This document shows, one piece after another, positions 4,818 through 48,694 of a DNA stretch of 64,000 bases. Position 1 is the first letter of the stretch; each line of letters opens with the position of its first letter. Origin of the DNA: Escherichia coli (GTDB lineage Bacteria > Pseudomonadota > Gammaproteobacteria > Enterobacterales > Enterobacteriaceae); NCBI RefSeq assembly GCF_051903065.1, contig NZ_CP178439.1; one strand, written 5' to 3'. The notes below the pieces were generated by a model. That model was not told the DNA's origin. It was given only the letters and a program-made list of their open reading frames with translations, and ran no database searches. The position numbers were made by a program, and so were the translations under genes.

Positions 4818-4938
4818 TATGGGAAAAGTTACTTTGCCTGCTCTGCTTGGGGCCACCGTGATTGGTTTTGTCGTATTTGCTTTAACCAGCTTTTACTACA
4901 GGTCAGAATATATACCAAAAAGGGGTAATGACTCCAAC

Positions 4939-5636: not shown

Positions 5637-6033
5637 TGGAGCACCTCAAAAACACCATCATACACTAAATCAGTAAGTTGGCAGCATCACCCAAAAAGGA
5701 GTGTATTAATCGTTCCGGACGCACCCATTAGTATCGAAGATGGCAGTAACGCTTTTCCCGTTCAGACAGTAATAATGAACGATCCAACTCTTATTGATAA
5801 ATTTGTAGGAGAGGACAATATTAATGAGGAGAATGCTTTTGACTATCACAAAAGTAACGTTTTGGAACCTAATTACAAACATGAAATATCTAGAACGAGC
5901 CAGATAGATAAAGCTGAAATGAATCATCCATCTGTTCGTGAAAACTGGGCCAGAGCAGGTGATCCCTATATCGTTCCTCAGATGTCTGACAGCGAACGAA
6001 ATCTAAAAATTAAACGATTCCAGAAACCTACAA

Positions 6034-19093: not shown

Positions 19094-19483
19094 TTAATAT
19101 GGGGTGTGCGCAGGTTCAGACATATAAGGTCTTAGTTCTATATGAACAGAAGCGCCATTCCCATCATTTACTACGTTTAAAGGTGCTTTGCCCGGCAATG
19201 ACATAGTTGCAACGTCAGGTCCAGAAACAGCAAAATTATTTTCTGCTGAAGGCATTACTGTAAAAATCTTTATAGCAACATTTTCATGTCTAAATAAAGA
19301 AATCCCAAAAGTAGAACCAGCTTCGGTATTGCTCACGTCCACAACCACAGGGGTTTTTCCTAGATATTCATTAGTTAGTATGTTTTTTACTAATGCCCCT
19401 TCCGGGACAGTATAGATACGGTATGGATATGCTAAAACTGAGTGACAAAAACATAATAAAATAACAATTAATGTTTTTTTCAT
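19094..19483 (-). CDS. Small exported protein, unknown function
   Basis: 129 aa with signal peptide MKKTLIVILLCFCHSVLA; last gene of a four-gene minus-strand operon. Confidence 0.55.
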   Translation of the reverse strand: MKKTLIVILLCFCHSVLAYPYRIYTVPEGALVKNILTNEYLGKTPVVVDVSNTEAGSTFGISLFRHENVAIKIFTVMPSAENNFAVSGPDVATMSLPGKAPLNVVNDGNGASVHIELRPYMSEPAHTPY

Positions 19484-20001
19484 AGATTATCCTCATTCAA
19501 AAATAAAAGATATAACTCTTGAAAATCGTGGTTATTAATTAGGTCCGCTTTTCCGGGAAAATCGTAACTAACAGAAAATAAAAGAGAAAGAGAATCTTTT
19601 CCTTTTGCTTTGGGAGAGATTCTGCTAAAAGCACGGTTAATAAACATAAGTTGATCTTCATTGTTGAAGCAAAGTCCAAGCATTCCAACCGTAGGAACTA
19701 CGAATGTGCTTACGCTGCCTGGGGGCAAAAGTTGCTTACTACGGGCATTGTAAGCACAACGACTACCACCTAGCGTTAGGCCTGAAAGCTCAATAAAACT
19801 TCTGGTTCCATTCTTGGCGACAAGCCAAACATCAGTTCCTGAACTTTCGACACGTAAAGTAACTTTTCCGTCAGTAAAGGCCTCACTTTTATTGTATAGA
19901 ATAGGGTCAAAACCAACTGTCGGGAGTTCTTCGATTTTACTTTCTACTGACTGACAACCAGTCAGTAATGCAAACAATAAAAGTGTGATAACTTTAATCA
20001 T
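19480..20001 (-). CDS. Lipoprotein, unknown function
   Basis: 173 aa; lipobox LTGC; 4-bp overlaps with both neighbours. Confidence 0.6.
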   Translation of the reverse strand: MIKVITLLLFALLTGCQSVESKIEELPTVGFDPILYNKSEAFTDGKVTLRVESSGTDVWLVAKNGTRSFIELSGLTLGGSRCAYNARSKQLLPPGSVSTFVVPTVGMLGLCFNNEDQLMFINRAFSRISPKAKGKDSLSLLFSVSYDFPGKADLINNHDFQELYLLFLNEDNL

Positions 20002-20830
20002 CCCGCTTCCTTAGATTGTTTTTGGCGCTGGTTATAAAAGATAATGATTCACCGGGGTAGAGAATTGTTTCTTTCGTCCAATAACCATAACCACCGAGGA
20101 TATCTTTTCTTTTCTCAATATAAACCGGTTCAGAAAATTCTAAATGTTGATATTTCGGAAGAGATAAGATTTTATATTTTACTTGTCCAACTAAGAGGTA
20201 ATTCTTCTCTTTAGGATTGATGGTTACTGAATTACCAACACTTTGAGGTATGTTAAGTTTTTTTATATTTAGATCAGAATCGTCAGGAACGGACACTTGA
20301 TCATTAGATGTCTTTCCGGGAAGAGTAAACCCTTTATCCTGATCCGGTCCAAAGATGGCAATTACATCTTTGTTGTTTCTTGTGATCGAAACGATAGCCT
20401 GAAGGGGCGTATTAGCAAGGTCATTTATAAACGATATAGTTATACTTGATTTAGGCTCGACCCAAACAATGCTTTTTCCGGATGTGCCTTCGCTTAATGC
20501 AATTTTTTCATTTAGTAAGATTTTATTTTTGGCAATGATATTATACTCAAGTTTCGGTATCACCATAAAAAGTGATTCTTTATTTGAAACATTCATGATT
20601 TCTAAGAAATTGGTTTTGGTCATGCTGGTCTTTAGAACAGGCCTATATTTACCATTTATAAACCACCTTCCGTTTATAAGCTCCGCTTTAGCAGATATAA
20701 GTGAATCACTTTTCTGAGCGGCAGAAGAAAAAGCATCTTTTCTTTGCTCTTTCTCTTGATGTGGTGCAGCTGCTGCGTGAAGATGCAAAAGTAATGTTGA
20801 AATTGAGATAATCTTCCATTTTATCTTCAT
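19994..20830 (-). CDS. Exported protein, unknown function
   Basis: 278 aa with an N-terminal signal peptide; coupled to neighbours. Confidence 0.55.
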   Translation of the reverse strand: MKIKWKIISISTLLLHLHAAAAPHQEKEQRKDAFSSAAQKSDSLISAKAELINGRWFINGKYRPVLKTSMTKTNFLEIMNVSNKESLFMVIPKLEYNIIAKNKILLNEKIALSEGTSGKSIVWVEPKSSITISFINDLANTPLQAIVSITRNNKDVIAIFGPDQDKGFTLPGKTSNDQVSVPDDSDLNIKKLNIPQSVGNSVTINPKEKNYLLVGQVKYKILSLPKYQHLEFSEPVYIEKRKDILGGYGYWTKETILYPGESLSFITSAKNNLRKRDD

Positions 20831-21774
20831 CTTGTTACCTCAATGTTGTTTTCAATCGAATCGAGTTCTAAAGGATAGGTTTTAAGTGAATAAAACTTGT
20901 TTGTTGTTTGTATTAGCTGATGACACAATAAAACTGGATTGTTCTTCATGATTATTTCTACTAATGTAAGTGCTGGTGAGTCAGTTGGCGGTATACCCGG
21001 AGCAACTATTACCTGGTCTTCTAATTTTGACATATAGAGTGATCCAGTATTTATATGTAAACAATTACCGATCAGTACTGGAAGATTGTTTTGAGTACGA
21101 CCATGGGCTTTTCGAATGCTGTTTACAGGATTCCTACCTAGGACCATAAGGTTGACGTCATTTATCATCATTGGTATTACGGCATGGTCCATACCGAATA
21201 GAAACTGGCTCTGAAAAATATTCACATTGGCATAGTTGAATGCTTGAAGCGCATTATAAGTATCAGTGAATGATGTGCGGATAGGGGCGTAATCAGAAGG
21301 GCAAACCCCAATTTTTATATCGCCTTTGAGTAAAATCTGCATCATCGTACCAAGCTGGGTATTAAGAAGTTTTTTTACCTCTTCCTCTAAATAGTAACGA
21401 TTTACAGCTTTATGCCACTTTCCGCCCATTACACACCATCTCTCATTGAGGTATGTGCTGGGGTAAAATGTTCTCCGGTCTTTGTTTAATGGTAACAATT
21501 TTTTTAACATTTCTTCTCCGGCTCCGGCAGCTGAGAAATGCCTCACAAAACGTCCATCGAAAAAGCCACTGTTTATCGCCTTCATCAACTCTATGGGTTC
21601 CGGCCCATAGTCAAACAAATTTCCAGTAGAGAAAATTACTATCTCTTCTTCTGGCTTTGTAACTGATTGAATCAAGTTGCACAGCGCAGAGTAATGTCCA
21701 TGAGGATCTGCCAGAAAGAAAATCCTTCCCGAGAAGTTTGTAAGGTCTATAGTTTGGACGTGCTCAGCTGCCAT
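20827..21774 (-). CDS. Calcineurin-like metallophosphoesterase
   Basis: 315 aa; LADPHGHY (D-x-H) and GNLFDYG (GD-x-x-D-x-G-like) metal-binding motifs; first gene of the minus-strand operon. Confidence 0.65.
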   Translation of the reverse strand: MAAEHVQTIDLTNFSGRIFFLADPHGHYSALCNLIQSVTKPEEEIVIFSTGNLFDYGPEPIELMKAINSGFFDGRFVRHFSAAGAGEEMLKKLLPLNKDRRTFYPSTYLNERWCVMGGKWHKAVNRYYLEEEVKKLLNTQLGTMMQILLKGDIKIGVCPSDYAPIRTSFTDTYNALQAFNYANVNIFQSQFLFGMDHAVIPMMINDVNLMVLGRNPVNSIRKAHGRTQNNLPVLIGNCLHINTGSLYMSKLEDQVIVAPGIPPTDSPALTLVEIIMKNNPVLLCHQLIQTTNKFYSLKTYPLELDSIENNIEVTR

Positions 21775-33559: not shown

Positions 33560-36500
33560 GTGAAACTTAGAAAAACAATCACCTCAGCGATTATTGCATC
33601 AATGGTTGCCAATACTATGAGTTGGGCTTTTTATGTCACACTCATAAACATGGTAATGACACCACGTGTTTACGCTGCTGACGCTATATTTGACCAGCTC
33701 GAAAATAATTTTAACCTTGCAAATCCTAACGCAAATCGCAATGCAACCACCAGTGCTCAGGACATTGTGGAGAAATACAAGAACGCGGATTCAGGCGAGA
33801 ATGTCAGTGGGAAGATCACCGAGAAATACGTGGGTAAAGCCGAATCCGCTAATCTTAATCTCGGGAAGTATGGGGCAGGGAACTCTAATGAAAGTGTCAT
33901 GAAAAATGCCGCATCCGATGGAAAGTCTATTGGTAGCGCCGTACAACTGCCGAGTATGTCTGGAGGGACAATCAATTCAAACTACACCAAGGAAGGGGCA
34001 AAGCTGCTCTCTCGTGATGCTAATGGCAACATTGGTATAAGCAGTAATCCCAATACTACTCCTGGAACCAAAACAAATACGGGAGAGATTTTCAGCTCAG
34101 AGCAAAAGCACAGCGATATAAAGTTCAACGCCGCAGATCGTTATGGGGATGAGGATGGCTTTGTTAACGATATAAAGAATCGGAAAAGCCAGTTATTTGA
34201 TGCTCAAAGTTATGATGGCGTTGCCTACCGCACCCTCGTAAATGCTAACAAGGACAACCCGGCATCGTCTGTAAAGCCTAACGATCCCATGTTTACTGCG
34301 GGGAGAAATGAGATAACCAATGCTGTTGCTGGTACTGGAAACTGGCTTCAGAACTGTAATGTTGAGACCTCCAAAAAAACAGTAACCACACACTATCCTG
34401 ATTACAAAGAGTTCTACTGTAACTCGCCTAAGCAAGATAACTTCAGCAGCTGCACGATAACTCGTGACTTCTCTGTTCCTGTATACATTTCAGGCGGAAA
34501 CGGAGACATGTCGATGTGCGGCGATAATTGTGTGCGTATATGGTTTGGTCGCCGTGATGACAACTACTGGAGTGACGGGGTATTTAATAACGAACTGACA
34601 TTAAAATTCCATCCGGATGCAAAATTGGCCTCAGCAAAGATTGTTAACGCGGAGTGGGATGACCACATGCGGGTAACACTTGATGGCACGCAGATTTTTG
34701 CTCACATAGATGGTGCATATCGAGAAAGTGACTATCCGGCTCCAAAGGGATCTTGGGAGTTAAAAAAATCGTGGAAACTCGACAAAGTATACGATGTAAC
34801 TGAAAAGGTCAGAAAATCAGTTTATGAAGAACCTGATCGTGAAGTGACAATGGCATCCAGAGTCTGGGTTGGTGGGGGAGGTGAAGGGTACTTTGAGGTT
34901 GAGCTGACGTTTGAAAATATGAAGCTCGAAGATAAGCACGTCCAGGAACCAGCTGGTTGTTACGATGCTGTACAAACACCAAATACATTCTGCCGTTTCG
35001 ATCGGTTTAAAGATATGGATGTTGGCACGAAGCGGCTTCCGGAAAGCGTGCTTTCTATGGCAAAGCCGCTGTATGAAGGCGATAAAGGCTTTCTTACCTG
35101 GAAGACTAACCTTGAAGGCTATTTTTGTGATCCATTGGCTAAAGACAAGATTTGCTCTTATGACGCTAGTGGGAAAATTATGAAAGACGCTAATGGAAAG
35201 GACCTCTGTTACAACTACGAAGAAATTAAGAGTATGCCTGATGCATGTAGTTCTTATAAAAATGATGCAGCATGTGTACTCGATAAACAAACATGTGCAG
35301 AGGGTTGGTTCGATGAGGGCACTAACAGCTGCTACATGTATGAACAGAAATACACCTGTGACAGAGGTAAGGATGTAGTTCGTGAGGTTGAATCTTCTAC
35401 AAATGCCTGTGTTGGCATGATCCCATGTTCTGGAGGAACATGCGAAACTGGGCCAAAGGAAGAGAACAACGATTTTGGAAAAGTTGCGGCTTATTCAAAC
35501 ATGGTTCAGTACATGCAGGGCGAAGCCAAATGCGAAGACCCTAACGATGCCAATTCCTGTTCTGTCTTTGAAGGAAAACCTGAATGGTGTGGTCGTTCAG
35601 TAGGCTTTGTAAATGGCCTGGCAAAGACGGACTGCTGCGAAGCACCGCAGGGAACCGCAGGAGCACTTGAAGGTATCATGCTTGCCGGATCTATGATCAG
35701 AAACACTAACTGGACCAGAGTTAATGCTCAGCTAATAAAATGGACCGGCGGTGATACAGGTACATGGGCTTCTATGTCCAATGCGGTCGGTGAGTGGACT
35801 GCATCAGCTGGTAAAACAGTAGGGCAAATGTGGAACAATGTCACGAGCTCCTTAACGAGCGTATATGAAAACGTCGCTGGTAATCTAAGCAGGGCAGTTG
35901 GGTCTTCCGCAACTTCTGGAGGGGCAGGAGGTGCTGGCCAGTTGGCACAGGAAACAATGTCCAGCTTCGGTATAGGTCAGCTTAAGCAGATGGCAATGAA
36001 GAAAGCCTACGAATTGCTACCAGATACAGTTCGAGACTTTGTCTTTAAGAACGTTGCTACTACCGGAGGAGAGGTTGTCTTCTCGGCTGCGGTTCAAAAC
36101 TTTATGCTTGCATTAAACGTGATCGGTTGGATTTATACAGCCTATCAGGTCACTAAAATGCTTTTAGAAATGTTGGTAGCATGCGACCAGAAAGAGATGG
36201 AAGCTTCTATTCATAAGAATCAAAAATCCTGTTTTACATTAGATACGGAACGATGCGTCAAATATCTGAATGTTGGTTTCACAAAGAAATGCGTTAAAAA
36301 AGCAACAGACATGTGCTGTTATAATTCCATGTTGTCACGCGTTATTATGCAACAAGCTTATCCGCAATTAGGAATAGACCCTGTCGCCTCTAATTGCGTG
36401 GGGCTATCAATAAAGCAAATACAGCAACTGGATTTCGATAAAATTGATCTGACGGAGTGGATTAATGATGCAGTTCAGGTAGGAGAAGTTCCTGATCAAT

Positions 36501-36748
36501 ATTCAAAATTCTCCGAAGAATCAATTGTGGAAAACTTACCATTCCAGAATGAGAACTATCAACTTCCATCAGAACGTACCAAGGAAGCAATGGGCGGTGA
36601 AGAAAATATGATAAAGGCCAGACAAGAAAATGCTCAGGCTATAAAAGAGGAAAATGTAGATTGTAGCTATTTACCTCGACCGGCCATATGTGAGGTAGGT
36701 TCAACTACGCTGGATCCGGTTACGGGCAAGCAGTTGCCGAAATATTGA
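33560..36748 (+). CDS. trhN: TraN-like Cys-rich outer-membrane mating-pair-stabilisation protein
   Basis: 1062 aa; signal peptide; many Cys concentrated centrally and C-terminally, as in F TraN; GTG start after AAGGAG. Confidence 0.6.
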   Translation: MKLRKTITSAIIASMVANTMSWAFYVTLINMVMTPRVYAADAIFDQLENNFNLANPNANRNATTSAQDIVEKYKNADSGENVSGKITEKYVGKAESANLNLGKYGAGNSNESVMKNAASDGKSIGSAVQLPSMSGGTINSNYTKEGAKLLSRDANGNIGISSNPNTTPGTKTNTGEIFSSEQKHSDIKFNAADRYGDEDGFVNDIKNRKSQLFDAQSYDGVAYRTLVNANKDNPASSVKPNDPMFTAGRNEITNAVAGTGNWLQNCNVETSKKTVTTHYPDYKEFYCNSPKQDNFSSCTITRDFSVPVYISGGNGDMSMCGDNCVRIWFGRRDDNYWSDGVFNNELTLKFHPDAKLASAKIVNAEWDDHMRVTLDGTQIFAHIDGAYRESDYPAPKGSWELKKSWKLDKVYDVTEKVRKSVYEEPDREVTMASRVWVGGGGEGYFEVELTFENMKLEDKHVQEPAGCYDAVQTPNTFCRFDRFKDMDVGTKRLPESVLSMAKPLYEGDKGFLTWKTNLEGYFCDPLAKDKICSYDASGKIMKDANGKDLCYNYEEIKSMPDACSSYKNDAACVLDKQTCAEGWFDEGTNSCYMYEQKYTCDRGKDVVREVESSTNACVGMIPCSGGTCETGPKEENNDFGKVAAYSNMVQYMQGEAKCEDPNDANSCSVFEGKPEWCGRSVGFVNGLAKTDCCEAPQGTAGALEGIMLAGSMIRNTNWTRVNAQLIKWTGGDTGTWASMSNAVGEWTASAGKTVGQMWNNVTSSLTSVYENVAGNLSRAVGSSATSGGAGGAGQLAQETMSSFGIGQLKQMAMKKAYELLPDTVRDFVFKNVATTGGEVVFSAAVQNFMLALNVIGWIYTAYQVTKMLLEMLVACDQKEMEASIHKNQKSCFTLDTERCVKYLNVGFTKKCVKKATDMCCYNSMLSRVIMQQAYPQLGIDPVASNCVGLSIKQIQQLDFDKIDLTEWINDAVQVGEVPDQYSKFSEESIVENLPFQNENYQLPSERTKEAMGGEENMIKARQENAQAIKEENVDCSYLPRPAICEVGSTTLDPVTGKQLPKY

Positions 36749-36750
36749 AG

Positions 36751-36776
36751 AAGGGGCCGTTAGGCCCCTTTTTTAA
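36751..36776. terminator. Bidirectional terminator between convergent trhN and the lipoprotein gene
   Basis: AGGGGCCgttaGGCCCCT followed by TTTTTT. Confidence 0.65.
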
Positions 36777-37649
36777 TTACTTGGCTTTCAATGTTTTTTC
36801 TGGGAAGCCTTTTTTACCGTATTCACCGGTAAAGAGGTAATAATCTTTTCCGTTGATGGAGGCTGCAACACCCCCTGGAGTTGTTGTATTTGGGCTATCA
36901 GAACGGAAAATGATACCCGAAAAATCAGCGCTTGTTTCGTTTCCTTTAAATGGGATGAACACATAACGAATTACAGCGTAATCACCAGCGGGAAGGTTTA
37001 GCTGAGGAATTTCGGTTCCTGTTGCGGGGCGAATCGCCTGAAAGCTGTACATTGAATCTGTAGGGAAAACATCAGCATCAGGCTTAGAGGGCAGATCACA
37101 GGTACTCCATTTATTGACGACTGCCATATCAATTTTACATGTGGCCAGAGCTGCTTTCTGTTTTTCAGGGTTGTATCCAAATGAGGCCTGAGTTGCTTTT
37201 GTATGCTCAAAAACATACTTAGCTCCTTCACGTACCAAACTTTCATCATTGTAAGGCAATTTTTTTGGATTGGGGACGAACACTAGGTATTGATTGACCT
37301 GGATGTATTCGGCGTCAGAAGAACTGTACAAAGAGCCGAGGCTCATGATCCCAAAACCTTTTAGACCGCCTGTTACGTAGCCCATCGAACTATTGATGAG
37401 ATACTTAGAAAGAAAGTTGTCGGCATCCCCTCCAGGAGTAACCTCTTGCTCCTTAAAATTAACGTCGAAACCAGCAAACGAATAGGCATTCTTGGCGACA
37501 GAATCATTTGCTTTAGCATGCCAGTACTGGCCGTGACTGTACGCATTCAGAGCGGTGCCTGGCGTAGTGCCGGTGTCACCGGCACAACCCGATAGGGAAA
37601 AACCAATGACGACAGAAGAGACCAGAGATACTAAACGTAAAAGTTTCAT
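36777..37649 (-). CDS. Lipoprotein, unknown function
   Basis: 290 aa; lipobox LSGC after a signal peptide. Confidence 0.65.
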   Translation of the reverse strand: MKLLRLVSLVSSVVIGFSLSGCAGDTGTTPGTALNAYSHGQYWHAKANDSVAKNAYSFAGFDVNFKEQEVTPGGDADNFLSKYLINSSMGYVTGGLKGFGIMSLGSLYSSSDAEYIQVNQYLVFVPNPKKLPYNDESLVREGAKYVFEHTKATQASFGYNPEKQKAALATCKIDMAVVNKWSTCDLPSKPDADVFPTDSMYSFQAIRPATGTEIPQLNLPAGDYAVIRYVFIPFKGNETSADFSGIIFRSDSPNTTTPGGVAASINGKDYYLFTGEYGKKGFPEKTLKAK

Positions 37650-37828
37650 TTAAAGCCCTTTTTGTAATGTCTTTTGGAGATGGAACCATTATTCCATAGT
37701 CACGCGTTTCACAAACAACCTGATTGCATAAAAAAGGAAAAAAAGTGATTTCCAGTAGAACCAGCAGTACACAAGAAAAGCGCTTTTATAAAAATGTATA
37801 ATTATTAAAACGAAGTAATGAGGTTGAA

Positions 37829-39613
37829 ATGGGTAAGCCAACAGAAGAGCAAAGACCTGTTATCGAGAATGCTAGCGCAAACAATATGGTGATAGCAGCG
37901 CCTGGATCAGGCAAATCATTCACCATGATAGAAGCGGTTATATCGATTCTCAAAAAGTATCCATATGCAAGAATCGGGATGGTGACCTTTACTCGCGCTG
38001 CAACAAACGCACTTGCAGCAAAGTTACAAAAGCGATTGAGCAAGAAGGATCTTGACCGGGTGCTGGTGGATACTTTTCACGGACTCGTTAAGAAGCAACT
38101 GGACATGATTCGCTGGCCGGGAAAGATGTTGATAGGGCCAGCACAGAGATCTGTCATTCACCGGGCTTTGAAAGAATCCGGTGTAACGATGAAGTTTGCT
38201 GAAGCTGAATTCGTTATTGATGCTATCGGCAGAGAAATGGATACGGATGTGATTTCAGTTCGGCATAACAGACAACAGATCCATTTATTTAATACCTATC
38301 AGGCGTTATGCCAGAAAGACCATGTGGCGGACCTCAATGCTCTTTCAAAATTTGTTGTCGGTCAAATGCATTCGGGAAAAATGCGCACGTTAGATTTGAC
38401 ACATTTGATAGTAGACGAAGTTCAGGATACTGACTCTATACAATTCTCATGGATAGCATTGCATACAAGAGCTGGAGTCTATACGAGTATAGTTGGAGAC
38501 GATGATCAGGCCATCTACTCCTTCAGATCCTCAGGAGGAGTCAAAATATTTCAACAGTTTGAAAAACACTTCAGACCTAACATATTTTACTTAAACACAT
38601 GCTTTAGGTGTGAACCTGAAATTTTAGAGGTGGCCGGAGCACTGATAGGAAAGAATGTTTACCGTTATGCCAAAGAGTTACGCTCGGCAAAAAAGGGAGG
38701 AGGAAAGGTCACTTTTCGTTCATATGTAGATATGGAGGAACAGATACAGGGTATTTTAAGCCTTATAAATCAGGATCCACATGGATGGGCAATTCTAAGC
38801 CGCAATAATGCTCACTTGGATGAGCTAGAAAGTTTGATCGAACAGCCAGTAATTCGTTACGGAGGTAAATCATTCTGGGATGAAAAAGAAACAAGCGATG
38901 TGTTAAGCCTTATGGCCTTTTTCCGACAATCAAATGATCCTCGCTTAATGAAGAGAGTATTGGCATTGTTTGGAGAACAGGAATCAGTTTTGGATGAAGT
39001 GGCATTGAGTATGAGAGGAAGAAAAGTTACTTTTGGCGACCTTGCCATCCCGGAGGACAGTTCTCTCGAAACAAAAACATTACATTCAAACTTCGTGCGC
39101 TTTACCCAGGAAAGTACTGATAAAGTTGAGATAGCAAAACGTTTCGCCAACCTTACGAAATGGATGGAATCGTCGTCAATCAAGATGAGGAGTAATAAAG
39201 GTACAGCAACCTTAACAAAAATTGCTTTAGACACTTGTAAACAGTGGGCAGAAAAGACTGGTTGGATGAATATGATCAATCGTGCTGCTGCAATGTCATT
39301 AGGCCCTAGGAAGAAGGACGAGGAATACAGCCCAGAGAAAGTAGTCCTATCAACCTTGCATGGTTCAAAGGGTCTTGAGTGGAATAAAGTAATAATAATG
39401 AGTTGTAATGCGGATCAGATACCAAGTAAAAGATCAGTTGGGGAGGAGGCAATAGAAGAAGAAAGACGTTTGCTTTATGTTGGATTTACGCGTGCAGAAA
39501 AGCAACTTTTTGTAATGTGGTATGGTGACCCTTCTTTCTTTTTAAGAGAATGCAGTGAAGAAAAGATAAAAGAAGCAGCTAATATTCGAATTTCTCCAGT
39601 TTATACAGAATAA
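37829..39613 (+). CDS. UvrD/Rep-like superfamily 1 DNA helicase
   Basis: 594 aa; motif I AAPGSGKSFT, motif II LIVDEVQDT, motif VI VGFTRAEKQL. Confidence 0.8.
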   Translation: MGKPTEEQRPVIENASANNMVIAAPGSGKSFTMIEAVISILKKYPYARIGMVTFTRAATNALAAKLQKRLSKKDLDRVLVDTFHGLVKKQLDMIRWPGKMLIGPAQRSVIHRALKESGVTMKFAEAEFVIDAIGREMDTDVISVRHNRQQIHLFNTYQALCQKDHVADLNALSKFVVGQMHSGKMRTLDLTHLIVDEVQDTDSIQFSWIALHTRAGVYTSIVGDDDQAIYSFRSSGGVKIFQQFEKHFRPNIFYLNTCFRCEPEILEVAGALIGKNVYRYAKELRSAKKGGGKVTFRSYVDMEEQIQGILSLINQDPHGWAILSRNNAHLDELESLIEQPVIRYGGKSFWDEKETSDVLSLMAFFRQSNDPRLMKRVLALFGEQESVLDEVALSMRGRKVTFGDLAIPEDSSLETKTLHSNFVRFTQESTDKVEIAKRFANLTKWMESSSIKMRSNKGTATLTKIALDTCKQWAEKTGWMNMINRAAAMSLGPRKKDEEYSPEKVVLSTLHGSKGLEWNKVIIMSCNADQIPSKRSVGEEAIEEERRLLYVGFTRAEKQLFVMWYGDPSFFLRECSEEKIKEAANIRISPVYTE

Positions 39614-40007: not shown

Positions 40008-40880
40008 ATGTCTAAAAATAAAGCTCGCAGTAAAGCCCTTCATCAAACCTTTAGTGAAATTATTCCAGAGATGGATAAGGCGCTAAACAAACAGCTCTTA
40101 GAAGTTCTGATGAAATATACAGAACGTGATAATGAACTGATTGTTATTTTGAATGAGGACGGCCCAAATATCATTGAACTTAAGTCTCTTAAGCCTGTGT
40201 CTTTGTTGGCCGAAAAGCTTTCTGCTTATTCAAGCTATTATCATGTGGATGTTGTGGAGCTCGTGGTCAAGAAAATTGATTTCGAAGGAGCTTATAAGCT
40301 TCTTAAAGCTTCCCCAGATGTACCACTTTTTAAAAGCTTAACTGAACTGGATAAATATCTTGTTGAGGAGTTTGAAAAATACGGATTAAATTCATTTCTT
40401 GACGTGGATAATCTGGATTACTCACTTGAAAAAGCCAGTGAACTCAAAAATGAGCAGTTAATAAATTGGGTTTCGGACATCATTTGCAAACGTGAAAAAT
40501 TAACTTTACGTAAGCGTTTTGATGTCGCAGTAAAGGCCCACTACGAAAATGTAGAAAAAATGTATGATACCATTCGTCCGTTAATGAAAAAACTGGGTTT
40601 CCCAGAAGATCTCATGACGCACACCTTTAGTGAGTTAAGCGTTTTTGAAACTAAAGGATGGGACCATGCAATAAAATCGAAAATTGAGACTCTCGCTAAG
40701 CGTGAAACTCAATATTTAGATGATGCGGCTAAAGCAGAGAATCGACGTCTTGTAACAGAGAAGTTGGAGAACTCTTTAGCGATTGCACCAACTAAACCAA
40801 CAAGAAATTGGTTACATATTGCCGGAATTGCCTGTTTGGTAGTCTGCACGTTCATGTATGTAACTAATAAATTTATTTAA
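40008..40880 (+). CDS. Hypothetical protein with C-terminal membrane anchor
   Basis: 290 aa; C-terminal hydrophobic helix WLHIAGIACLVVCTFMYV. Confidence 0.55.
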   Translation: MSKNKARSKALHQTFSEIIPEMDKALNKQLLEVLMKYTERDNELIVILNEDGPNIIELKSLKPVSLLAEKLSAYSSYYHVDVVELVVKKIDFEGAYKLLKASPDVPLFKSLTELDKYLVEEFEKYGLNSFLDVDNLDYSLEKASELKNEQLINWVSDIICKREKLTLRKRFDVAVKAHYENVEKMYDTIRPLMKKLGFPEDLMTHTFSELSVFETKGWDHAIKSKIETLAKRETQYLDDAAKAENRRLVTEKLENSLAIAPTKPTRNWLHIAGIACLVVCTFMYVTNKFI

Positions 40881-40937
40881 TCCTGTTAAGGGGGAACCCT
40901 AACGGGGCTTCTCTTTGAACAAATCGAGGAGCGGAAA

Positions 40938-41315
40938 ATGTCATATCTTGAATATATCAATGAAGTAAAAGTGTCCGGGATAGTTATCAGTGCTGTGGAG
41001 AAAAAAATGACTGACCAGAGTATAGGTTTGTTAATAAAGCTCAAAAATAGGATGAAGACAGAAGTTGATGGTGAAATCACTGAGAGAGAATTTTCAGTTC
41101 AAATCAAGGTGTCGCCTGAAATGTATTCAACCTGTTTCACTGGTATAAATCAGGGTGATGAGTTGATGGTCTCCGGTTATATTGTTGTCGATACTATTAT
41201 GATTGAAGGGAGAGAACATCCTCTTGACTACATGAGAGTGGTAGCAACAAGTAAGTTGGCTCACATACCTAAACCTCTAAAAGGTTTTGGACAAAGTAGC
41301 TTTAATCAGATCTGA
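40938..41315 (+). CDS. Hypothetical small protein
   Basis: 125-aa ORF with an RBS-like GAGGAG upstream. Confidence 0.5.
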   Translation: MSYLEYINEVKVSGIVISAVEKKMTDQSIGLLIKLKNRMKTEVDGEITEREFSVQIKVSPEMYSTCFTGINQGDELMVSGYIVVDTIMIEGREHPLDYMRVVATSKLAHIPKPLKGFGQSSFNQI

Positions 41316-41375
41316 CATTAAACCCACCCTAAAGGGGAGAAATCCCTTCATGGGATTTCTCCTTTTGGAGTCCCC

Positions 41376-42353
41376 ATGAAACAAAAATTTAGGGCTACTG
41401 CAATAAGTAGTAATCAACTTAGTTTTTTTTCTATACTCGATATAGATGAAGATGAAATAACGCAAATAGTTGATTCACCCAAAGAGCATTTAAATGATGC
41501 TTACACGTCCGGATTAAACTTTAAATCAGAAGAAAGTAACATTTCTGAGATAAATTATGATTCTGAAAGGCGTGAAAATCACCTTTATGAAAAATCCAAA
41601 TTACTTAAAAATCAGATTTTGCATACAATTAATTTTGCAACAGAAACAGATTATCTATATACGGTTGAAGAATATAACCCAGATTTGGGTGGTCTGGTAA
41701 TAGAATGGACCCCTGAGGATGTGTATGTTGTTTTTCTATCCGCTATGGAAGAGTCTTTGGAAATCATTAAAGAACTAGTGTTGAGGAGAAAGTTATTCTT
41801 CAAAGATGACAATGGTAATATCACAGTGAATCCACTTTTAGAAGCTGAAACACGGTGGTATATGTCAAAATCATTTGAATACACTTGTTTATCTCATGGA
41901 CTTGATGCATGTGAATTTAGAGCGGAATTAAAATCATGGCTCTATTATCATTCGCATCGTTCGATTAGTGAAAACACGAAATTAGCTGAATGCAGGAATG
42001 ATGATGAAATCATTTTGCATGATTGCAATGACGATATGGGCTGGGACATCTTCTTTGATCAGGATTATTTAATGTCAGAAAAAAAACTGGCTGTTAAATG
42101 GACTGACAGGGAAATTATGGATGTTTACATAAAAGCTTTTAAATCCTCATTAGAGTTGTTTGACGAGCTTGTTTCATGTGATCTGTTAACTAAACGAAAC
42201 GCTTTTGGCAAGTTAGAAATCAATCCAATATTCGAAAATCATTTTGAATGGATCATGTCTGAAGCTTTTGAAATAGTGGGAAATCATCTTGGTTATAATG
42301 TGCCTCAAATCAGGAAACTGATGGCAACTATTTGCCAAATGAATCTCAAATAA
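41376..42353 (+). CDS. Hypothetical acidic protein
   Basis: 325-aa ORF preceded by a hairpin and RBS GGAG. Confidence 0.55.
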   Translation: MKQKFRATAISSNQLSFFSILDIDEDEITQIVDSPKEHLNDAYTSGLNFKSEESNISEINYDSERRENHLYEKSKLLKNQILHTINFATETDYLYTVEEYNPDLGGLVIEWTPEDVYVVFLSAMEESLEIIKELVLRRKLFFKDDNGNITVNPLLEAETRWYMSKSFEYTCLSHGLDACEFRAELKSWLYYHSHRSISENTKLAECRNDDEIILHDCNDDMGWDIFFDQDYLMSEKKLAVKWTDREIMDVYIKAFKSSLELFDELVSCDLLTKRNAFGKLEINPIFENHFEWIMSEAFEIVGNHLGYNVPQIRKLMATICQMNLK

Positions 42354-42410
42354 AATGCCACTGGCAAACATCTGCCAGAGGGCGGTGTTTGCATTTTACC
42401 GGAGTTAAAA

Positions 42411-43469
42411 ATGTCTAATGCCGCTATGAAGTTAAATGAAACATCTTCTGATGCTTATGAAAAATTAGAAGCTCTTCTTTCCCCGGATGTTATAAAGTTA
42501 AAACATTATGTGGATAAAGGTGAGTATCTTTTAGTTCTAGCAAAGGACCTTTTTGGTATTCCAGAAATGGATCCAAAGATGGCTGTGCCTGTTTTCAAAA
42601 CTAAAACCTCGTATCGAGCTCCGCTGAACAAAGACTACATACCAAATCCCCGAATACTTGAACAAGTGGTTAAACTGCTTATCAGTCCGGATATAGATTT
42701 AAGTGTGTGTCTTAAAGGTGAGTCCGGTTCTGGCAAGACTGAAATGGTAATGTACATTAGCCACATGATGAATTGGCCGCTGACAATTAAGCAGATCAAC
42801 AGCAATATTCGAGTTGATGAGCTTGAAGGTGAGCGCAGTCTTAATGGTGGTAATACAGGTTTTGTACACAGCGATTTGGTAACGGGATTTCGTAATGGTC
42901 ACCTCATTCTTCTGGATGAAGTGGACAAAATCGATCCTGATACGGCAGCAAAACTTCACATGCCCATTGAACGTAAGCCCTGGTCACTCAGTGCTAATGG
43001 TGGTGAGGTTATAACTGCTAATGGCTACACGCGATTTATTGGTACTGCAAACACAAACATGAGTGGAGGCGCTCGCCGGTTCGTTTCTTCTCAACGTCAA
43101 GATGCAGCTTTTATAAAGCGGTTCTTGATAGTTGAAATGGAGAAGCCCGACAAAGTTGCTTTAACCAATGTGCTTACTAAACGATATAGCTCTTTGCCTT
43201 TTCAGGTCATTGAGAAGTTCGTAAGAGTAGCGATTGCAGTAAATGACTCTGGTACAGAAGACAGTGTGATGGATATTCGTCAATTAGTAGCTTGGGTTGG
43301 CACGTCGATGACGTTAAAAACCTTTAGTCTTCTTGACACTTTCAAAATAGCTTTTGCTTCTGCTTTACCTTTACATGTGGTCGATCTTGTTCTTCAAGCT
43401 ATAGATCTTTCTCTTGGCGAAGACAAGGATAAATCGCTGGAGTATTTCACAGCAAAAAAGTCGAGTTAG
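42411..43469 (+). CDS. AAA+ ATPase, MoxR/CbbQ/CobS-like (AAA_5 type)
   Basis: 352 aa; Walker A GESGSGKT; Walker B ILLDEVDK; sensor-like TANT. Confidence 0.8.
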   Translation: MSNAAMKLNETSSDAYEKLEALLSPDVIKLKHYVDKGEYLLVLAKDLFGIPEMDPKMAVPVFKTKTSYRAPLNKDYIPNPRILEQVVKLLISPDIDLSVCLKGESGSGKTEMVMYISHMMNWPLTIKQINSNIRVDELEGERSLNGGNTGFVHSDLVTGFRNGHLILLDEVDKIDPDTAAKLHMPIERKPWSLSANGGEVITANGYTRFIGTANTNMSGGARRFVSSQRQDAAFIKRFLIVEMEKPDKVALTNVLTKRYSSLPFQVIEKFVRVAIAVNDSGTEDSVMDIRQLVAWVGTSMTLKTFSLLDTFKIAFASALPLHVVDLVLQAIDLSLGEDKDKSLEYFTAKKSS

Positions 43470-43837
43470 ATGGGATTTGTTATGAAACCTCTGATATTTG
43501 TATCTCAGAGTTATCCCATCTTGAATTTAGTGCGTTTTTAAGTACGGATGGTGCTGCTACCATTGCTATAGCAAAAAACGGAACTAATTTTACTGGACTT
43601 ATGCAACTGAATAACGACTATTCTTTATTGTTTTATCATGATGGTAAAATAAATATGGAAGGTCTGATTAAACAAATGGAATTAAAAGGTTATATGTATC
43701 AGGGAGCAATGGGCAATGATGATGTTGTTGCTGAGTTTCCCGGTATTCTTTTAATTTCACCAGAGTAGCTTTAATATCAACCCTATCGGGAAATCTTTCC
43801 CGTTGGGGAGGGTTTCCCCTTTTTTTTGGAGAAACCC

Positions 43838-44965
43838 ATGACTTTAAATACTTCAATGCTTAACAAAGTATCTGCAAAACAAATCTCTGAGAATTTTGCA
43901 AAATCATATCCAGATTTACTGGAAGGTGCAGTTATAACAAAAATTGAAATAAGTGGCTGTCAAGGATCGCGTCGAACCGATAAAATCGATTTGTCTTATG
44001 ATGGAGATGATATTACGGATCAAAAAAGCGTATCTAAAAGCGAAGTACGCTGGATTGACATAAAAGCCCTTAGCTTCAAAAGTACGATTACCAGCAGAAT
44101 ATCAACTCTTTGCTCACGCTTGTGCATCCGCTATAGCAATATGTGGATTTTACCAGTATCCAGTATGGAAGAGTTTCTGGAAGGGGCCCAAGAGATTGAA
44201 CGAGAGTTTCAGGCAGGTATTCAAAACGTTGTAGACAATTATGAGATGCATATTGAGGCTGAAAAAAATAGAAGCCCAAGAATGTCTTCTTTGATTGATC
44301 AGTTGAAATTAACTAAAGATGATTTCATAAAATCCTTTAGATTTAATATTGCTCACTTTATTCCTTTTACGCCTATTAGCGTTGAAGGTGATGAAACCCA
44401 GGACTACTATCAGGAACAATTGATAACAGATCTGGCAGAAGAAGCAATGAAGGTTTATGAAAAAATTAGCAAAAATAACAATTTGCGCTCAAGTACTATT
44501 GACCGACTGAAGCAAATGCAAAATAAGATCATTAGCTTCATGTTTATACATAAAGAGGCGGCAGTACTTGCAGAAGCTATAAAACACATAATGAATAATT
44601 TACCTAAAGGTGCCATTTCTGAACCTCGCGACGTTGCGGTGTTACAGCAGTGGTTTTATTTCATGAGTGATGCTTCAATGTTAAAGCGTATTATTTCAGG
44701 AGAGCAAAAGGTTACTGACTGGTTGGAATCTATTACCAGATCATTTAATCAAAGCTCACAAACAGAACCGAACGCGCTACAGAACACAGGTATTGAAGCT
44801 ATTTTAGATTCAACAAATGTGTTCCAGGTTGAACCTGTCGTAGAGAACGATATAAATAACAGCACGTTTTCAAACACTGATCCTGTAGCTGAACCTGAGA
44901 AATCAGTTTCGCAACAGGAAGACAATGTTGAAAATGGTTTTGATATCGAGCTCAAAGGCTGGTAA
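43838..44965 (+). CDS. Hypothetical protein between the AAA+ ATPase and the vWA protein
   Basis: About 375 aa; ATG at 43838 after RBS GGAG (track start 43826 is a TTG). Confidence 0.55.
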   Translation: MTLNTSMLNKVSAKQISENFAKSYPDLLEGAVITKIEISGCQGSRRTDKIDLSYDGDDITDQKSVSKSEVRWIDIKALSFKSTITSRISTLCSRLCIRYSNMWILPVSSMEEFLEGAQEIEREFQAGIQNVVDNYEMHIEAEKNRSPRMSSLIDQLKLTKDDFIKSFRFNIAHFIPFTPISVEGDETQDYYQEQLITDLAEEAMKVYEKISKNNNLRSSTIDRLKQMQNKIISFMFIHKEAAVLAEAIKHIMNNLPKGAISEPRDVAVLQQWFYFMSDASMLKRIISGEQKVTDWLESITRSFNQSSQTEPNALQNTGIEAILDSTNVFQVEPVVENDINNSTFSNTDPVAEPEKSVSQQEDNVENGFDIELKGW

Positions 44966-45042
44966 CTGTTTGCTTTATTAAAAACCCCAGATGGGTACTT
45001 CACCATCTGGGTGAGTACCCCTTTTTTATAAAGAGGTATTCT

Positions 45043-47055
45043 ATGAAATTAGATCTTAAATCATCACCGCGCCATATTAAGCGTTTACAGAATATAGCAA
45101 AAGTCATTAGCGGCTTAGGCGATGTAAGAGTTGTAATAGACGACAATACCAAAGGACCGTATTTTGATCCTGTAAATAAAGTTTGTGTTTTACCAAACGG
45201 CGATTATAGCGATGATGACTTTGTCAGTCTGATTGAAGGTTTTACCTGTCATGAAGCTGGTCATGGTCGCTATACCGACAGCGAGGTTTACAGTGACGCC
45301 TTTAATAGTGTTCTCAAGTCATCTGAAGGGTTTACACGCTTCGATGACGGAATGAATGCAGAGTTTGAGAGCCTCGCTGAGAAACGTAAAGCTTATAGCA
45401 GGGCAAAACGTCTTACCGGGCTTATAAATCTGTTCGATGATGTACAGATGGAAGAGAAGGTTGGTAACGATTATCCGGATGCAAAGCGGCGGCTTGCAGC
45501 CACTTACGCACTGATGGTTAAAGCCGGAAGGATGACTCCTGATATATCTTCTCGTCCGGAAAATCCTGTCCTATTTATTGAGTGGTATCTGCTTAACTCA
45601 TTGCGAGTAAAAGTCCTTCAGCAGGCAGGTCACAAAGAAACACTCGATCCGTTTTTTGACTATGCCCAAAAGATACTTTCTCCAGTAATTTCTGATGTTG
45701 AGGAAATTTTTCATGATGCTCTTGGTTGTGAAAATACTCAGGGCTGTGAATCCCTTGCTCGTAAGACCCTGGCTCTTTTAGAGAGACTGCGGGATGAGGC
45801 AAGGGAACAACAGCAGCAGACAGAGCAGGAGGAGCAGGAGGCATATGATGAATCCGAGACCGAGACCGAGACCGATACCGAATCAGAAGATAAATCGCTT
45901 GAGTCGACTGATAGTCGTGAGGATGATTCTGAGGACGATAGTGAAGGTCAGGCAGATACTTCCGATAACTCTGATCTTGCTCAAGAGGGATGTTCTGAGC
46001 CTTCAGAACTTGCTGAAGATAACGAGGGAAATAATGAACCCACCGGTGGCAATCCCACAGGTGATAACATTATTGAAGACGATACTGATGCGATTAACCC
46101 TTCCGAGAGTGAATCAGATGAAGCCAGTTCGACTAACGTTGAAGATGAAAGTAACTTTTCATCGGCTCAATGGGAGATACTGGCAGATTTGTTGGATGCC
46201 TTTCTTGGCAGTGATGAGGATAGCGAAGATTATCACGATGCTTTGGCTAAAGAGATTGAAGGTATTGCATCAAAAGTATCCGATGACGTGAAAGCCGAAT
46301 TCGGTGCTTCTGAATGGGATATCCCTGATCTCCTTATCGATTTGAATGTTTACAATGAGGCTTTGTCTCTGAGTCATTCAATCGGTAGCGACTTGTCTGT
46401 TTTACAGCAGGTTAAAATGCGTGGCCGAAACAAAACTCATGAGCGTGGAATTACCTTCGATGGAAATCGATTAATTCTGTCACCAATGGGAGTTCGTGAT
46501 GTCTTCAGAGCTCAAAGCGAATCTAAAAATAGAGGGCATGTTGGCCTCGTATTAGTTCGTGATATTTCAGCGTCAATGGCTAATGATGAAAGATATATTC
46601 ATGCCATTAAGTCAGATCTTGCTTTATCGATGGCCGCTGAAAGTTTGTCAAAAATGCATGTCTCCAATATAGTCTTTCCCTTCAAGGAAAGTGAATTTGA
46701 GATTATCAAAACGTTTGATCAAAGCGTTGAGGAATCTCTATCGAAATTCACTCTTGGATGTAAGGGTTATTATACCCCTACGGGATCGGCTTTAATGGCA
46801 GCTGTTGATCTGTTACTTGACAGCCAATTCGATAGGAAAATAATTTTTCTTATAACTGATGGTTATCCGAATAAATCGGAATTTACTATCGGCGAAGTTA
46901 TGGAAAAGGCTAAATGTAATGGAATAGAAATCGTTGGTGTTGGTATTAAGACTGATGAAATAATTGGTTTTGAAACGGACACTTTCGTAACAGTTGATGA
47001 TACTTCTTTATTGTCTATTGAAGTCAGTAAGCTAGTTCATCAAATACTTTCTTAA
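45043..47055 (+). CDS. von Willebrand factor A (MIDAS) domain protein with N-terminal HExxH and an acidic linker
   Basis: 670 aa; HEAGH near residue 70; long D/E/S/T-rich linker; C-terminal vWA with D-x-S-x-S (DISAS), Thr (YTPTGS) and Asp (ITDGYP). Confidence 0.8.
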   Translation: MKLDLKSSPRHIKRLQNIAKVISGLGDVRVVIDDNTKGPYFDPVNKVCVLPNGDYSDDDFVSLIEGFTCHEAGHGRYTDSEVYSDAFNSVLKSSEGFTRFDDGMNAEFESLAEKRKAYSRAKRLTGLINLFDDVQMEEKVGNDYPDAKRRLAATYALMVKAGRMTPDISSRPENPVLFIEWYLLNSLRVKVLQQAGHKETLDPFFDYAQKILSPVISDVEEIFHDALGCENTQGCESLARKTLALLERLRDEAREQQQQTEQEEQEAYDESETETETDTESEDKSLESTDSREDDSEDDSEGQADTSDNSDLAQEGCSEPSELAEDNEGNNEPTGGNPTGDNIIEDDTDAINPSESESDEASSTNVEDESNFSSAQWEILADLLDAFLGSDEDSEDYHDALAKEIEGIASKVSDDVKAEFGASEWDIPDLLIDLNVYNEALSLSHSIGSDLSVLQQVKMRGRNKTHERGITFDGNRLILSPMGVRDVFRAQSESKNRGHVGLVLVRDISASMANDERYIHAIKSDLALSMAAESLSKMHVSNIVFPFKESEFEIIKTFDQSVEESLSKFTLGCKGYYTPTGSALMAAVDLLLDSQFDRKIIFLITDGYPNKSEFTIGEVMEKAKCNGIEIVGVGIKTDEIIGFETDTFVTVDDTSLLSIEVSKLVHQILS

Positions 47056-47126
47056 TAAACTCTACCCAATCGGGGCAAAAGGCCCCGGTGGGTCTTTTTG
47101 CTCCATGAAGGAATAAGGAGCAAAAT

Positions 47127-47348
47127 ATGACTCAGATAAAAACTTACCGTGTAGAACATGAAAAAGTCGGTGCGATGCATAAAGTCCGTATTTTCGGACG
47201 TGTTGGTGAAGTTATAAGCAATGATAGCCCTCAGGAAAGAATCTTCCGCGAAGTCACTATAGCGGAGGGTAATAGCCAGCAGGCTGCGTTACTTGTAGAT
47301 AACTACATACAGCGTCTTGAGAATAATGGCTTCACGACTGAAGCATAA
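47127..47348 (+). CDS. Hypothetical small protein
   Basis: 73-aa ORF with RBS AAGGAG upstream, between two hairpins. Confidence 0.45.
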   Translation: MTQIKTYRVEHEKVGAMHKVRIFGRVGEVISNDSPQERIFREVTIAEGNSQQAALLVDNYIQRLENNGFTTEA

Positions 47349-47461
47349 ATGTTGAGGGCCCCCGGGCCCTCTTTCTTAAATTCTGCGTTGTGGGTTTCTC
47401 CCTGTCTTCTGCACCGCAGAAGGCATTGAGAAACTCACAATGCCAGATAAGAGAGATCATC

Positions 47462-48694
47462 ATGACTTATGCATCCCCGGCTCTTCGTCGTAATCCACAG
47501 GAAGTATCTGAACACTTTATTAAACTCGTTCATGCTCGAATTGCTGAAGTGTCTGGCTGGAAGTATATATTCGAAAGAATACCTGCTTTCAAAGACGCTT
47601 GTGCAAAAGCCCCGAGCCAGGTTCCTTGCCCGTTTACTGGCGCAGGGAAATCGAAGTTTCGTTTCCGACAAAAAGACCTTTATACCGGATGTGCGATCCA
47701 TAATGACTTTCCGGTAAATGAGTTTTGCGACGGAATTGATGTTCTGGCGAAATATTATGAATTAAGTAAAACGCAGACTTGCAAAAAGATTCTCTCAGAT
47801 TTTTTCGGGATGGATCTGCATGCTCCGTTAACTGACGCCGACATTGAAAATGAACGACGCTATAAATCAGCAGTTCGTGCCACAGAAACTCTTGACCGAG
47901 AGGAAGTGGCAAAGCGAATGCGAAAACTTGATGTGATGTATCACTATACCGGTGAAATCAAGCCTAATACTCCTGTTGCTTTGTACCTCCGTAATCGTGG
48001 GATCTCCCGCTTACTGAGTCACTTACCAAAGGATTTAGGCTTTAATAACCGGATCTACTATTGGGATAAAGATAAGCAGAAATCGATTATCTATCCGGGA
48101 ATGATTGCGATCTATCGTGACACCCGAGGTCGGCCTCTGACTATTCATAGAACATACGTAGACAAAAATGGTGATAAGGCACCTGTAGAAAATCCAAAGC
48201 TGATGATGAAGCCTCCTGCCGATATGACAGGTGGCTCAATTCAGTTGTTTGACCCTCACTATGATTCAGGTAGTTCGACCTGGACACTGGGAGTGGCTGA
48301 AGGGATCGAGAACGCGCTTTCTGTTGTAGAAGCGACTTCAACACCATGCTGGGCAGCCAGCTCCGCATGGTGCCTTGAAAACGTTACTGTTCCTGATTTT
48401 TTACTGCCTCCGCCGGATGTAAAATCTATAAACTTTTATATCTGGGCGGATAAGGATATTGCTAACTCACAAGGCACTCGTGCCGGTATTGAAGCTGCTC
48501 AGCGACTTCAAAGCCGCATGGTTGAGTTTTTGGCTAAACGATATCCCGCATCAAAGCTGACAATTGAAGTCTTCGAACCAGCACAAGATATTCCTGATGG
48601 GAAAAAGGGTATCGACTGGAACGATGTTCTCCAGTTAACAGGGCAGGATGGATTCCCGATTCACTGGGCTCCTGAATGTCTTAATCAGCTGTAA
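47462..48694 (+). CDS. TOPRIM-domain primase-like protein with N-terminal Cys-rich zinc-ribbon-like region
   Basis: CPFTGAGKSKFRF...GCAIHND Cys cluster; TOPRIM-like EGIENALSV (Glu) and IWADKD (DxD). Confidence 0.55.
   Translation: MTYASPALRRNPQEVSEHFIKLVHARIAEVSGWKYIFERIPAFKDACAKAPSQVPCPFTGAGKSKFRFRQKDLYTGCAIHNDFPVNEFCDGIDVLAKYYELSKTQTCKKILSDFFGMDLHAPLTDADIENERRYKSAVRATETLDREEVAKRMRKLDVMYHYTGEIKPNTPVALYLRNRGISRLLSHLPKDLGFNNRIYYWDKDKQKSIIYPGMIAIYRDTRGRPLTIHRTYVDKNGDKAPVENPKLMMKPPADMTGGSIQLFDPHYDSGSSTWTLGVAEGIENALSVVEATSTPCWAASSAWCLENVTVPDFLLPPPDVKSINFYIWADKDIANSQGTRAGIEAAQRLQSRMVEFLAKRYPASKLTIEVFEPAQDIPDGKKGIDWNDVLQLTGQDGFPIHWAPECLNQL

Follow-up and report, generated by a model that had tools for sequence, protein, structure and literature searches.

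The lipoprotein gene next to trhN

The DNA analysed here, referred to as the window, is a stretch of 64,000 nucleotides (nt) from Escherichia coli contig NZ_CP178439.1 (assembly GCF_051903065.1), and it is an IncHI2 plasmid backbone. This work concerns a gene in the window for a lipoprotein of 290 amino acids (aa), which lies convergently and directly after trhN, the gene of the TraN-type adhesin of the donor cell. The features of this locus are as follows.

33560 to 36748, plus strand: trhN (TraN-long, 1062 aa; Pfam F_T4SS_TraN), the donor adhesin and presumed specificity partner
36744 to 36777, no strand assigned: hairpin between the convergent stop codons, a bidirectional terminator candidate found by folding
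36777 to 37649, minus strand: coding sequence of the 290-aa lipoprotein, a homologue of R0004 of plasmid R27 (WP_000771832.1, annotated 'hypothetical protein')
37011 to 37031, minus strand: RPATGxE motif (aa 207-213), a signature common to the TraN-adjacent lipoproteins of Aeromonas and of family C, which is defined below
37098 to 37139, minus strand: cysteine pair C171...C184, invariant in the family alignment A1
37317 to 37397, minus strand: conserved Gly/Ser-rich hydrophobic segment (aa 85-111, INSSMGYVTGGLKGFGIMSLGSLYSSS), from the A1 alignment
37584 to 37649, minus strand: Sec/signal peptidase II (SPII)-type signal peptide with the lipobox LSGC (L19-S20-G21-C22), read from the sequence
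37656 to 37660, minus strand: Shine-Dalgarno-like AAGGG, 6 nt 5' of the ATG, also kept in R27
37688 to 37696, minus strand: extended -10-like element TGGAATAAT, in a block conserved in IncHI2, R27 and pNDM-MAR-type plasmids

The open reading frame (ORF) is intact from ATG to TAA, and the protein begins with MKLLRLVSLVSSVVIGFSLSGC. A preliminary description of this DNA had recorded an LSGC lipoprotein of 290 aa, convergent to trhN and sharing a bidirectional terminator with it. The reading frame and signal sequence agreed with this, the two stop codons are 28 nt apart, and the gap holds a strong hairpin (GGGGCC-GTTA-GGCCCC), with an A-run on one side and a T-run on the other, as a candidate for the common terminator. 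The hairpin folded at -23.4 kcal/mol on the plus strand (z -4.8) and at -21.6 kcal/mol on the minus strand (z -4.7), and none of the 200 shuffled sequences folded as well on either strand. Read in the direction of trhN its T-tract is perfect (TTTTTT); in that of the lipoprotein gene it is imperfect (TTCTTCAATATTT). A simple consensus scan for terminators did not pick up this hairpin, but folding did.

On the other side of the lipoprotein gene, trhI is divergent and 179 bp away. The sequence TG-n-AATAAT lies about 40 nt 5' of the ATG and is invariant in the three IncHI lineages named above. A consensus scan for sigma-70 found no full promoter upstream of the gene, and the -10-like block is a candidate promoter for a transcript of its own. 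In the lists of R27 genes regulated by temperature or by HtdA, R0004 does not appear; the genes just past trhI (R0001, R0002 and the preceding cluster R0204-R0209) were induced 8-20-fold at 25 °C (PMC7366339), and R0003 (trhI) and R0004 are unlisted there. With its conserved promoter-like block and 3' hairpin, the lipoprotein gene looks like a separate transcription unit. Homologues of R0001, R0002 and R0204-R0209 are located at about 40008-41315 of the window and beyond.

The lipid-attachment residue is Cys22, and both G21 and C22 are invariant in A1, the alignment of the IncHI family (29 sequences, 37 invariant columns). The mature N-terminus reads C-A-G-D, with Ala at position +2. In the Lol pathway of E. 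coli, the residue after the lipidated Cys governs membrane sorting. Because residue +2 is Ala, the window lipoprotein is predicted to be sorted to the outer membrane; across A1 this residue is Ala, Ser or Thr and never Asp. The preliminary description had spoken of 'surface or entry exclusion', and of these two terms surface exclusion is the better fit, since the +2 Ala predicts outer-membrane sorting, while the entry wording fits less well.

Within the Gly/Ser-rich segment, G90, T93, G94, M102, S106 and Y108 are invariant in A1. The segment has a confidence score (pLDDT) of <50 in the monomer AlphaFold2 (AF2) model of the window lipoprotein, and an equivalent low-confidence Gly-rich segment is found in family C, in the Aeromonas protein and in Sfx of IncC plasmids (aa 66-100). 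It is a candidate membrane-embedded or oligomerisation element. The cysteines C171 and C184, which form a probable disulfide, bound the most variable part of the protein, aa 151-200, where the identity between IncHI2 and R27 is 60-72%, against 84-96% in the flanking blocks.

Conservation on plasmids and copies without TraN

A 1.6-kb query (window 36400-38000) matched 1113 PLSDB plasmids at >=99% nucleotide identity. In these plasmids the neighbours are annotated TrhN and TrhI, and the gene itself 'hypothetical protein' or 'lipoprotein'. R27, the reference IncHI1 plasmid, has the same convergent order, with the lipoprotein gene at 4082-4954 (R0004) and trhN as R0005. Homologues of the protein reach down to 39% identity, and 387 of the 5426 complete E. 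coli genomes (~7%) carry a copy of the window gene or of its IncHI1-type homologue, almost always plasmid-borne. The IncHI2 lipoprotein is 76% identical to that of R27 and 43% identical to the pNDM-MAR-type copy; the lipoprotein diverges more than TrhN (88% and 64% in the same comparisons) and TrhU (95% and 79%). The gene is under strong purifying selection, because its rate of nonsynonymous change (dN) against R27 is 0.16 while synonymous sites are saturated, a saturation that left dN/dS not computable for most genes. Owing to the plasmid matches, the distant homologues, the number of genomes with a copy and this selection, the ORF is no chance reading frame. The protein had no match in Pfam, NCBIfam, PHROGs or PADLOC, and no sequence or fold match in the PDB.

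The linkage of the lipoprotein to TraN is kept, while the other neighbour varies by lineage. IncHI1, IncHI2 and six more lineages have trhI there, and the pNDM-MAR type has traG; in the metagenomic family C it is a DUF4400 gene with traD, and in IncC acaB. In one IncHI-like lineage (P0021), an extra ORF of 116 aa separates the lipoprotein gene from TraN and runs in the direction of the former (L034:6922-7272, L035:5231-5581). An insert found at this junction in some IncHI1 plasmids, and not in R27, encodes a 328-aa hypothetical protein, an ATP-dependent helicase and an 84-aa protein (L014:13334-16613, L002:16335-18361).

Copies were also found away from TraN. An intact one lies beside the integrase of a P22/lambda-like prophage (L020:4321-12876, with the copy itself at 6001-6876; GCA_977068915.1, 747-kb contig), and its product is 54% identical to the window protein and 89% identical to the copy on an IncHI-like plasmid of Buttiauxella. 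The DNA common to the prophage and the Buttiauxella plasmid covers a 67-bp upstream region and the coding sequence, with 88.7% DNA identity. The neighbours in the prophage are the integrase, Abc2 (anti-RecBCD), an N-like antiterminator, a Sak4-like protein and a CI-type repressor. A tblastn search with the prophage-borne homologue (P0027) gave no match in 50,697 phage records. A further homologue, of 271 aa, is encoded on the 9.3-kb Aeromonas veronii plasmid NZ_CP121831.1 (L017:4950-5765), which has no TraN and no type IV secretion system (T4SS) and whose other genes are just integrase, rep, par and toxin-antitoxin genes; against family C its lipoprotein gave an hhalign probability of 97%. These orphan copies, in a prophage and on a small plasmid, suggest a lipoprotein that is able to act in its own cell with no TraN present there, and not a part of the mating machine of the donor.

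Comparison with Sfx and with other exclusion proteins

Sfx lipoproteins occur on IncC, IncA and related (ACL) plasmids. Rivard et al. (2024; PMC11493245) described Sfx (vcrx085) of IncC plasmids as a 286-aa outer-membrane lipoprotein encoded between traN and acaB and expressed constitutively as a separate transcript bounded by terminators. They reported that Sfx is necessary and sufficient for IncC surface exclusion, that it is required in the recipient only and not in the donor, that the TraN of the donor sets the specificity of exclusion, and that orphan sfx genes are known in mobilizable islands. In the IncC plasmid pSN254, sfx is convergent and lies 38 bp after traN, and its product has an LSGC lipobox followed by Ala.

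The window lipoprotein resembles Sfx in several respects. Both are SPII lipoproteins of nearly equal length (290 and 286 aa) with Ala at +2, and in both cases the gene follows traN directly and convergently, within a conjugative backbone of the MOBH/MPF_F type. The transcription unit of Sfx is bounded by hairpins, and the window gene has a hairpin and a promoter-like block. Orphan copies on non-conjugative elements are found for both Sfx and the IncHI-type lipoprotein. Moreover, the IncC and IncHI backbones are syntenic in the order traW-traU-traN-lipoprotein and, further downstream, in genes for an AAA ATPase, DUF3150, VWA and toprim proteins, which indicates deep backbone synteny between the IncHI2 and IncC plasmid families. 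The block of AAA ATPase, DUF3150, VWA-domain and toprim-domain genes has the same order at 40008-48000 of the window and in pSN254 (L005/L006).

The two proteins also have a common order of features. After the lipid Cys there is a tether, then a short helix that has the motif S-x-A-x-N-x-A, a Gly-rich hydrophobic segment, conserved but left unplaced by AF2, a strand, Pro and a long helix, followed by conserved cysteines and a beta-rich C-terminal half. The window C184 is aligned with C170 of Sfx, whereas the second Cys is placed elsewhere, and helix 235-245 of Sfx has no counterpart in the window protein. The IncHI proteins were also not recovered in the searches of Rivard et al. (PMC11493245).

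A second group of TraN-adjacent lipoproteins stands between these families. An exhaustive search with a hidden Markov model (HMM) built from A1 found two lipoproteins of 283-285 aa (E 5e-8 and 4e-6), and the family defined from them here, family C, was expanded to 18 sequences (alignment A3). Its genes lie directly downstream of the TraN gene in F-like conjugative elements from metagenomes, and a related 287-aa lipoprotein is encoded directly after traN on Aeromonas MOBH plasmids. At the level of sequence profiles, the relationship between family C and the IncHI family is firm (hhalign probability 99%, E 6e-19; 97.5%, E 5.6e-12 with the signal peptides removed). The family C and Aeromonas proteins have the RPATGxE motif, the Gly-rich segment, the Cys pair, the length of about 285 aa and the position beside traN in common with the window protein, to which they are 23-26% identical by tblastn; however, their genes are co-directional with traN, while the window gene is convergent.

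The Sfx family was represented by 31 sequences (alignment A2). Family C against Sfx gave an hhalign probability of 95% when the signal peptides were included, a value that was discarded as inflated; for the mature parts only, the probability was 5% (P 0.008). The combined profile of family C and Aeromonas against mature Sfx reached a score of 30.5 (P 0.0016). This score was reached by 0 of the 166 column-block shuffled Sfx profiles (null 15.6±2.7, maximum 24.8), and the reversed profile gave P 0.14. Adding the Aeromonas sequences to family C raised the score, whereas merging the IncHI and family C profiles brought no gain (E 0.04-0.07). When the secondary structures (DSSP) of two separately predicted AF2 models were compared on a sequence-only alignment, they agreed at 65% of the 191 aligned positions, against 38±5% (maximum 49%) over 106 shifted registers. 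The two models, one of Sfx and one of the IncHI lipoprotein, have pLDDT values of 73 and 80 between them, and neither has a strong PDB match. These profile and model comparisons are suggestive, though not proof, of a common ancestry of the IncHI lipoprotein and Sfx, which we consider rather likely. The window lipoprotein is probably a distant IncHI counterpart of Sfx, and the most fitting place for this conserved, unnamed IncHI gene is among the TraN-coupled surface-exclusion lipoproteins, as a new and highly diverged variant.

In Rts1 (IncT), a gene for a 259-aa lipoprotein (LSGC) lies convergently between traN and setC (L019:11885-12664), a position like that of sfx and of the IncHI gene. 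The protein showed no significant profile similarity to the IncHI, Sfx, family C or Aeromonas families, and orf245 of Rts1 was set aside as a positional analogue only. For the transfer of Rts1, 32 genes are needed, and the positional analogue is not among them. In the HMM searches, a metagenomic protein of 597 aa with nine HGEYWRR repeats (P0122) also matched the N-terminal HGxYW of the profile (E 1.5e-5), most likely as a low-complexity artefact.

On the tra map of F, traT lies between traS and traD and not beside traN. The preliminary description was wrong in giving F TraT as an example of a TraN-adjacent exclusion lipoprotein, and identity of the window protein with TraT (Pfam PF05818) was ruled out, as there was no match in Pfam and no sequence or fold match in the PDB. 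Its guess at an exclusion role, made from position, fared better, as the convergent sfx after traN of IncC is a real precedent for it. TraT and the window protein are alike in being plasmid-made outer-membrane lipoproteins that act in the recipient, which is a prediction for the window protein, and in having a hydrophobic segment that could serve for insertion into the outer membrane or for oligomerisation. They differ in that TraT has ~225 mature residues and forms a decameric outer-membrane complex (PMC11733297), and its specificity was reported to be independent of TraN (PMC11493245; PMC11733297). In the cryo-electron microscopy paper on TraT (PMC11733297), 'SFX' abbreviates surface exclusion and does not denote the Sfx protein.

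The exclusion proteins EexA and EexB come from the same plasmid family, IncHI, as the window lipoprotein. Their genes are the exclusion genes of IncHI that have been defined by experiment. We take eexB to be R0016 and eexA to be R0018 of the R27 Z operon. This assumption fits PMC7366339 and bioRxiv 10.1101/334409. Homologues of the four Z-operon genes are present at 19094-21774 (minus strand) of the window.

20827 to 21774, minus strand: R0015-like gene, 72% identical to R27
19994 to 20830, minus strand: eexB-like gene, 44% identical to R27
19480 to 20001, minus strand: R0017-like gene for a 173-aa lipoprotein, 62% identical to R27
19094 to 19483, minus strand: eexA-like gene, 78% identical to R27

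EexB has diverged far more than EexA, perhaps because exclusion specificities differ between IncHI1 and IncHI2. The window lipoprotein is unrelated in sequence to EexA and EexB, and homology to EexB was ruled out (hhalign P 0.81). In contrast to the window protein, EexB has an ordinary signal peptide with no lipobox, its gene is 16 kb away between parM and parB, and donor and recipient were both reported to need it (PMC11493245). The homology search against exclusion proteins that the preliminary description had proposed was negative for TraT and EexB; for Sfx it was negative by BLASTP and borderline through the bridging family.

A possible role in surface exclusion and its alternatives

He et al. 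(PMC13104618) assigned TrhN of IncHI2 plasmids to the isoform TraNL-beta, of 1062 aa as in the window. They reported that conjugation by TraN-long needs OmpA in the recipient (as seen in the two isoforms examined, alpha and gamma) and that a tip at residues of about 305-457 sets the specificity. By analogy with Sfx, we see an even chance that the window gene encodes a TrhN-keyed surface-exclusion lipoprotein of the Sfx type, acting in the cell that carries the plasmid. The lipoprotein would be transcribed from a promoter of its own and apart from the tra operons. After export by Sec and lipidation at Cys22, it would reach the outer membrane of the plasmid-carrying cell. There it would stop the TrhN adhesin of an IncHI donor from stabilising the mating pair. 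The most likely route would be that an abundant lipoprotein occupies or shields the receptor of TrhN, presumably OmpA; we infer both the exclusion activity and this masking step.

Several observations weigh against this proposal. Only the signal peptides of the window lipoprotein and Sfx matched in BLASTP, the mature parts of the IncHI and Sfx profiles gave an insignificant hhalign result (E 0.22), and the alignments behind the bridging P of ~0.002 are shallow (Neff 2-3.5). In some IncHI1 plasmids, trhN and the lipoprotein gene are separated by three genes. The tip of TrhN is 86-90% identical between IncHI2 and R27, where the lipoprotein is 76% identical, with no obvious co-variation. IncHI plasmids, moreover, already have EexA and EexB as exclusion proteins. 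A cosmid screen of R27 by Gunton et al. (2008) reportedly found exclusion in the Z operon only; if so, the effect of R0004 is at most weaker or dependent on the expression level.

Three other explanations were rated lower than surface exclusion of the Sfx type. The lipoprotein may serve the donor as an accessory of mating-pair stabilisation, which would help TrhN to fold, dock or be displayed and be non-essential in laboratory matings. Such a role agrees with the linkage to traN, which is close, old and kept in at least five lineages, and the Cys-rich TrhN and the lipoprotein, with its invariant C171/C184, probably both need disulfide formation in the periplasm. However, orphan copies occur in the prophage and on a small plasmid without any T4SS, and the gene itself, convergent and with a promoter-like block of its own, does not share the regulation of the tra operons in R27. 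Sfx is also dispensable in the donor (PMC11493245), as is the Rts1 positional analogue for transfer. We consider a role in the donor unlikely.

Similarly improbable, in our estimate, is a general envelope-protection lipoprotein, which would protect against phages or colicins by masking a receptor such as OmpA, or would give serum resistance. OmpA is a common phage receptor, and roles of these kinds have been reported for TraT and the phage lipoproteins Cor and Llp. The copy beside the lambdoid integrase holds a moron position typical of superinfection-exclusion and lysogenic-conversion genes, and OmpA is used by TraN-long of IncH (PMC13104618). On the other hand, there was no match to a PHROG or PADLOC family and no copy in the sequenced phages searched, and the overwhelming majority of copies lie beside traN on conjugative plasmids. 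Envelope protection and surface exclusion overlap, as one masking activity could give both effects. Strict entry exclusion, that is, a block of DNA translocation at the inner membrane through a VirB6/TraG-type protein of the donor, as for TraS, Eex and EexC, was the other wording of the preliminary description, and a gene with a TraG_N domain is indeed the other neighbour in the pNDM-MAR type. We hold it to be very improbable: outer-membrane sorting is predicted family-wide from the +2 residue, the ~270 mature residues are unlike the small entry-exclusion proteins of the inner membrane, and the window already has, at another place, the gene for EexA, the inner-membrane factor of IncHI.

More speculatively, the proteins of Sfx, IncHI R0004 type, family C and Aeromonas may form one ancient superfamily of TraN-coupled, receptor-masking outer-membrane proteins across MOBH/MPF_F elements. 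The IncH member would shield OmpA, and prophages and small plasmids would have captured the cassette against IncH-type plasmids and possibly against OmpA-dependent phages. We regard this wider scheme as possible but doubtful.

IncHI2 plasmids are among the main carriers of resistance genes, including mcr-1 and blaNDM. The gene is moderately interesting, as the receptor of TraN is already known for this one system, IncH (OmpA, alpha and gamma isoforms; PMC13104618). If the lipoprotein is an Sfx-type factor, the receptor-masking model would be open to a direct test with three proteins, namely the lipoprotein, TrhN and OmpA, and IncH would have a third layer of exclusion besides EexA and EexB. 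The prophage copy would then be an example of an anti-conjugation gene carried by a phage.

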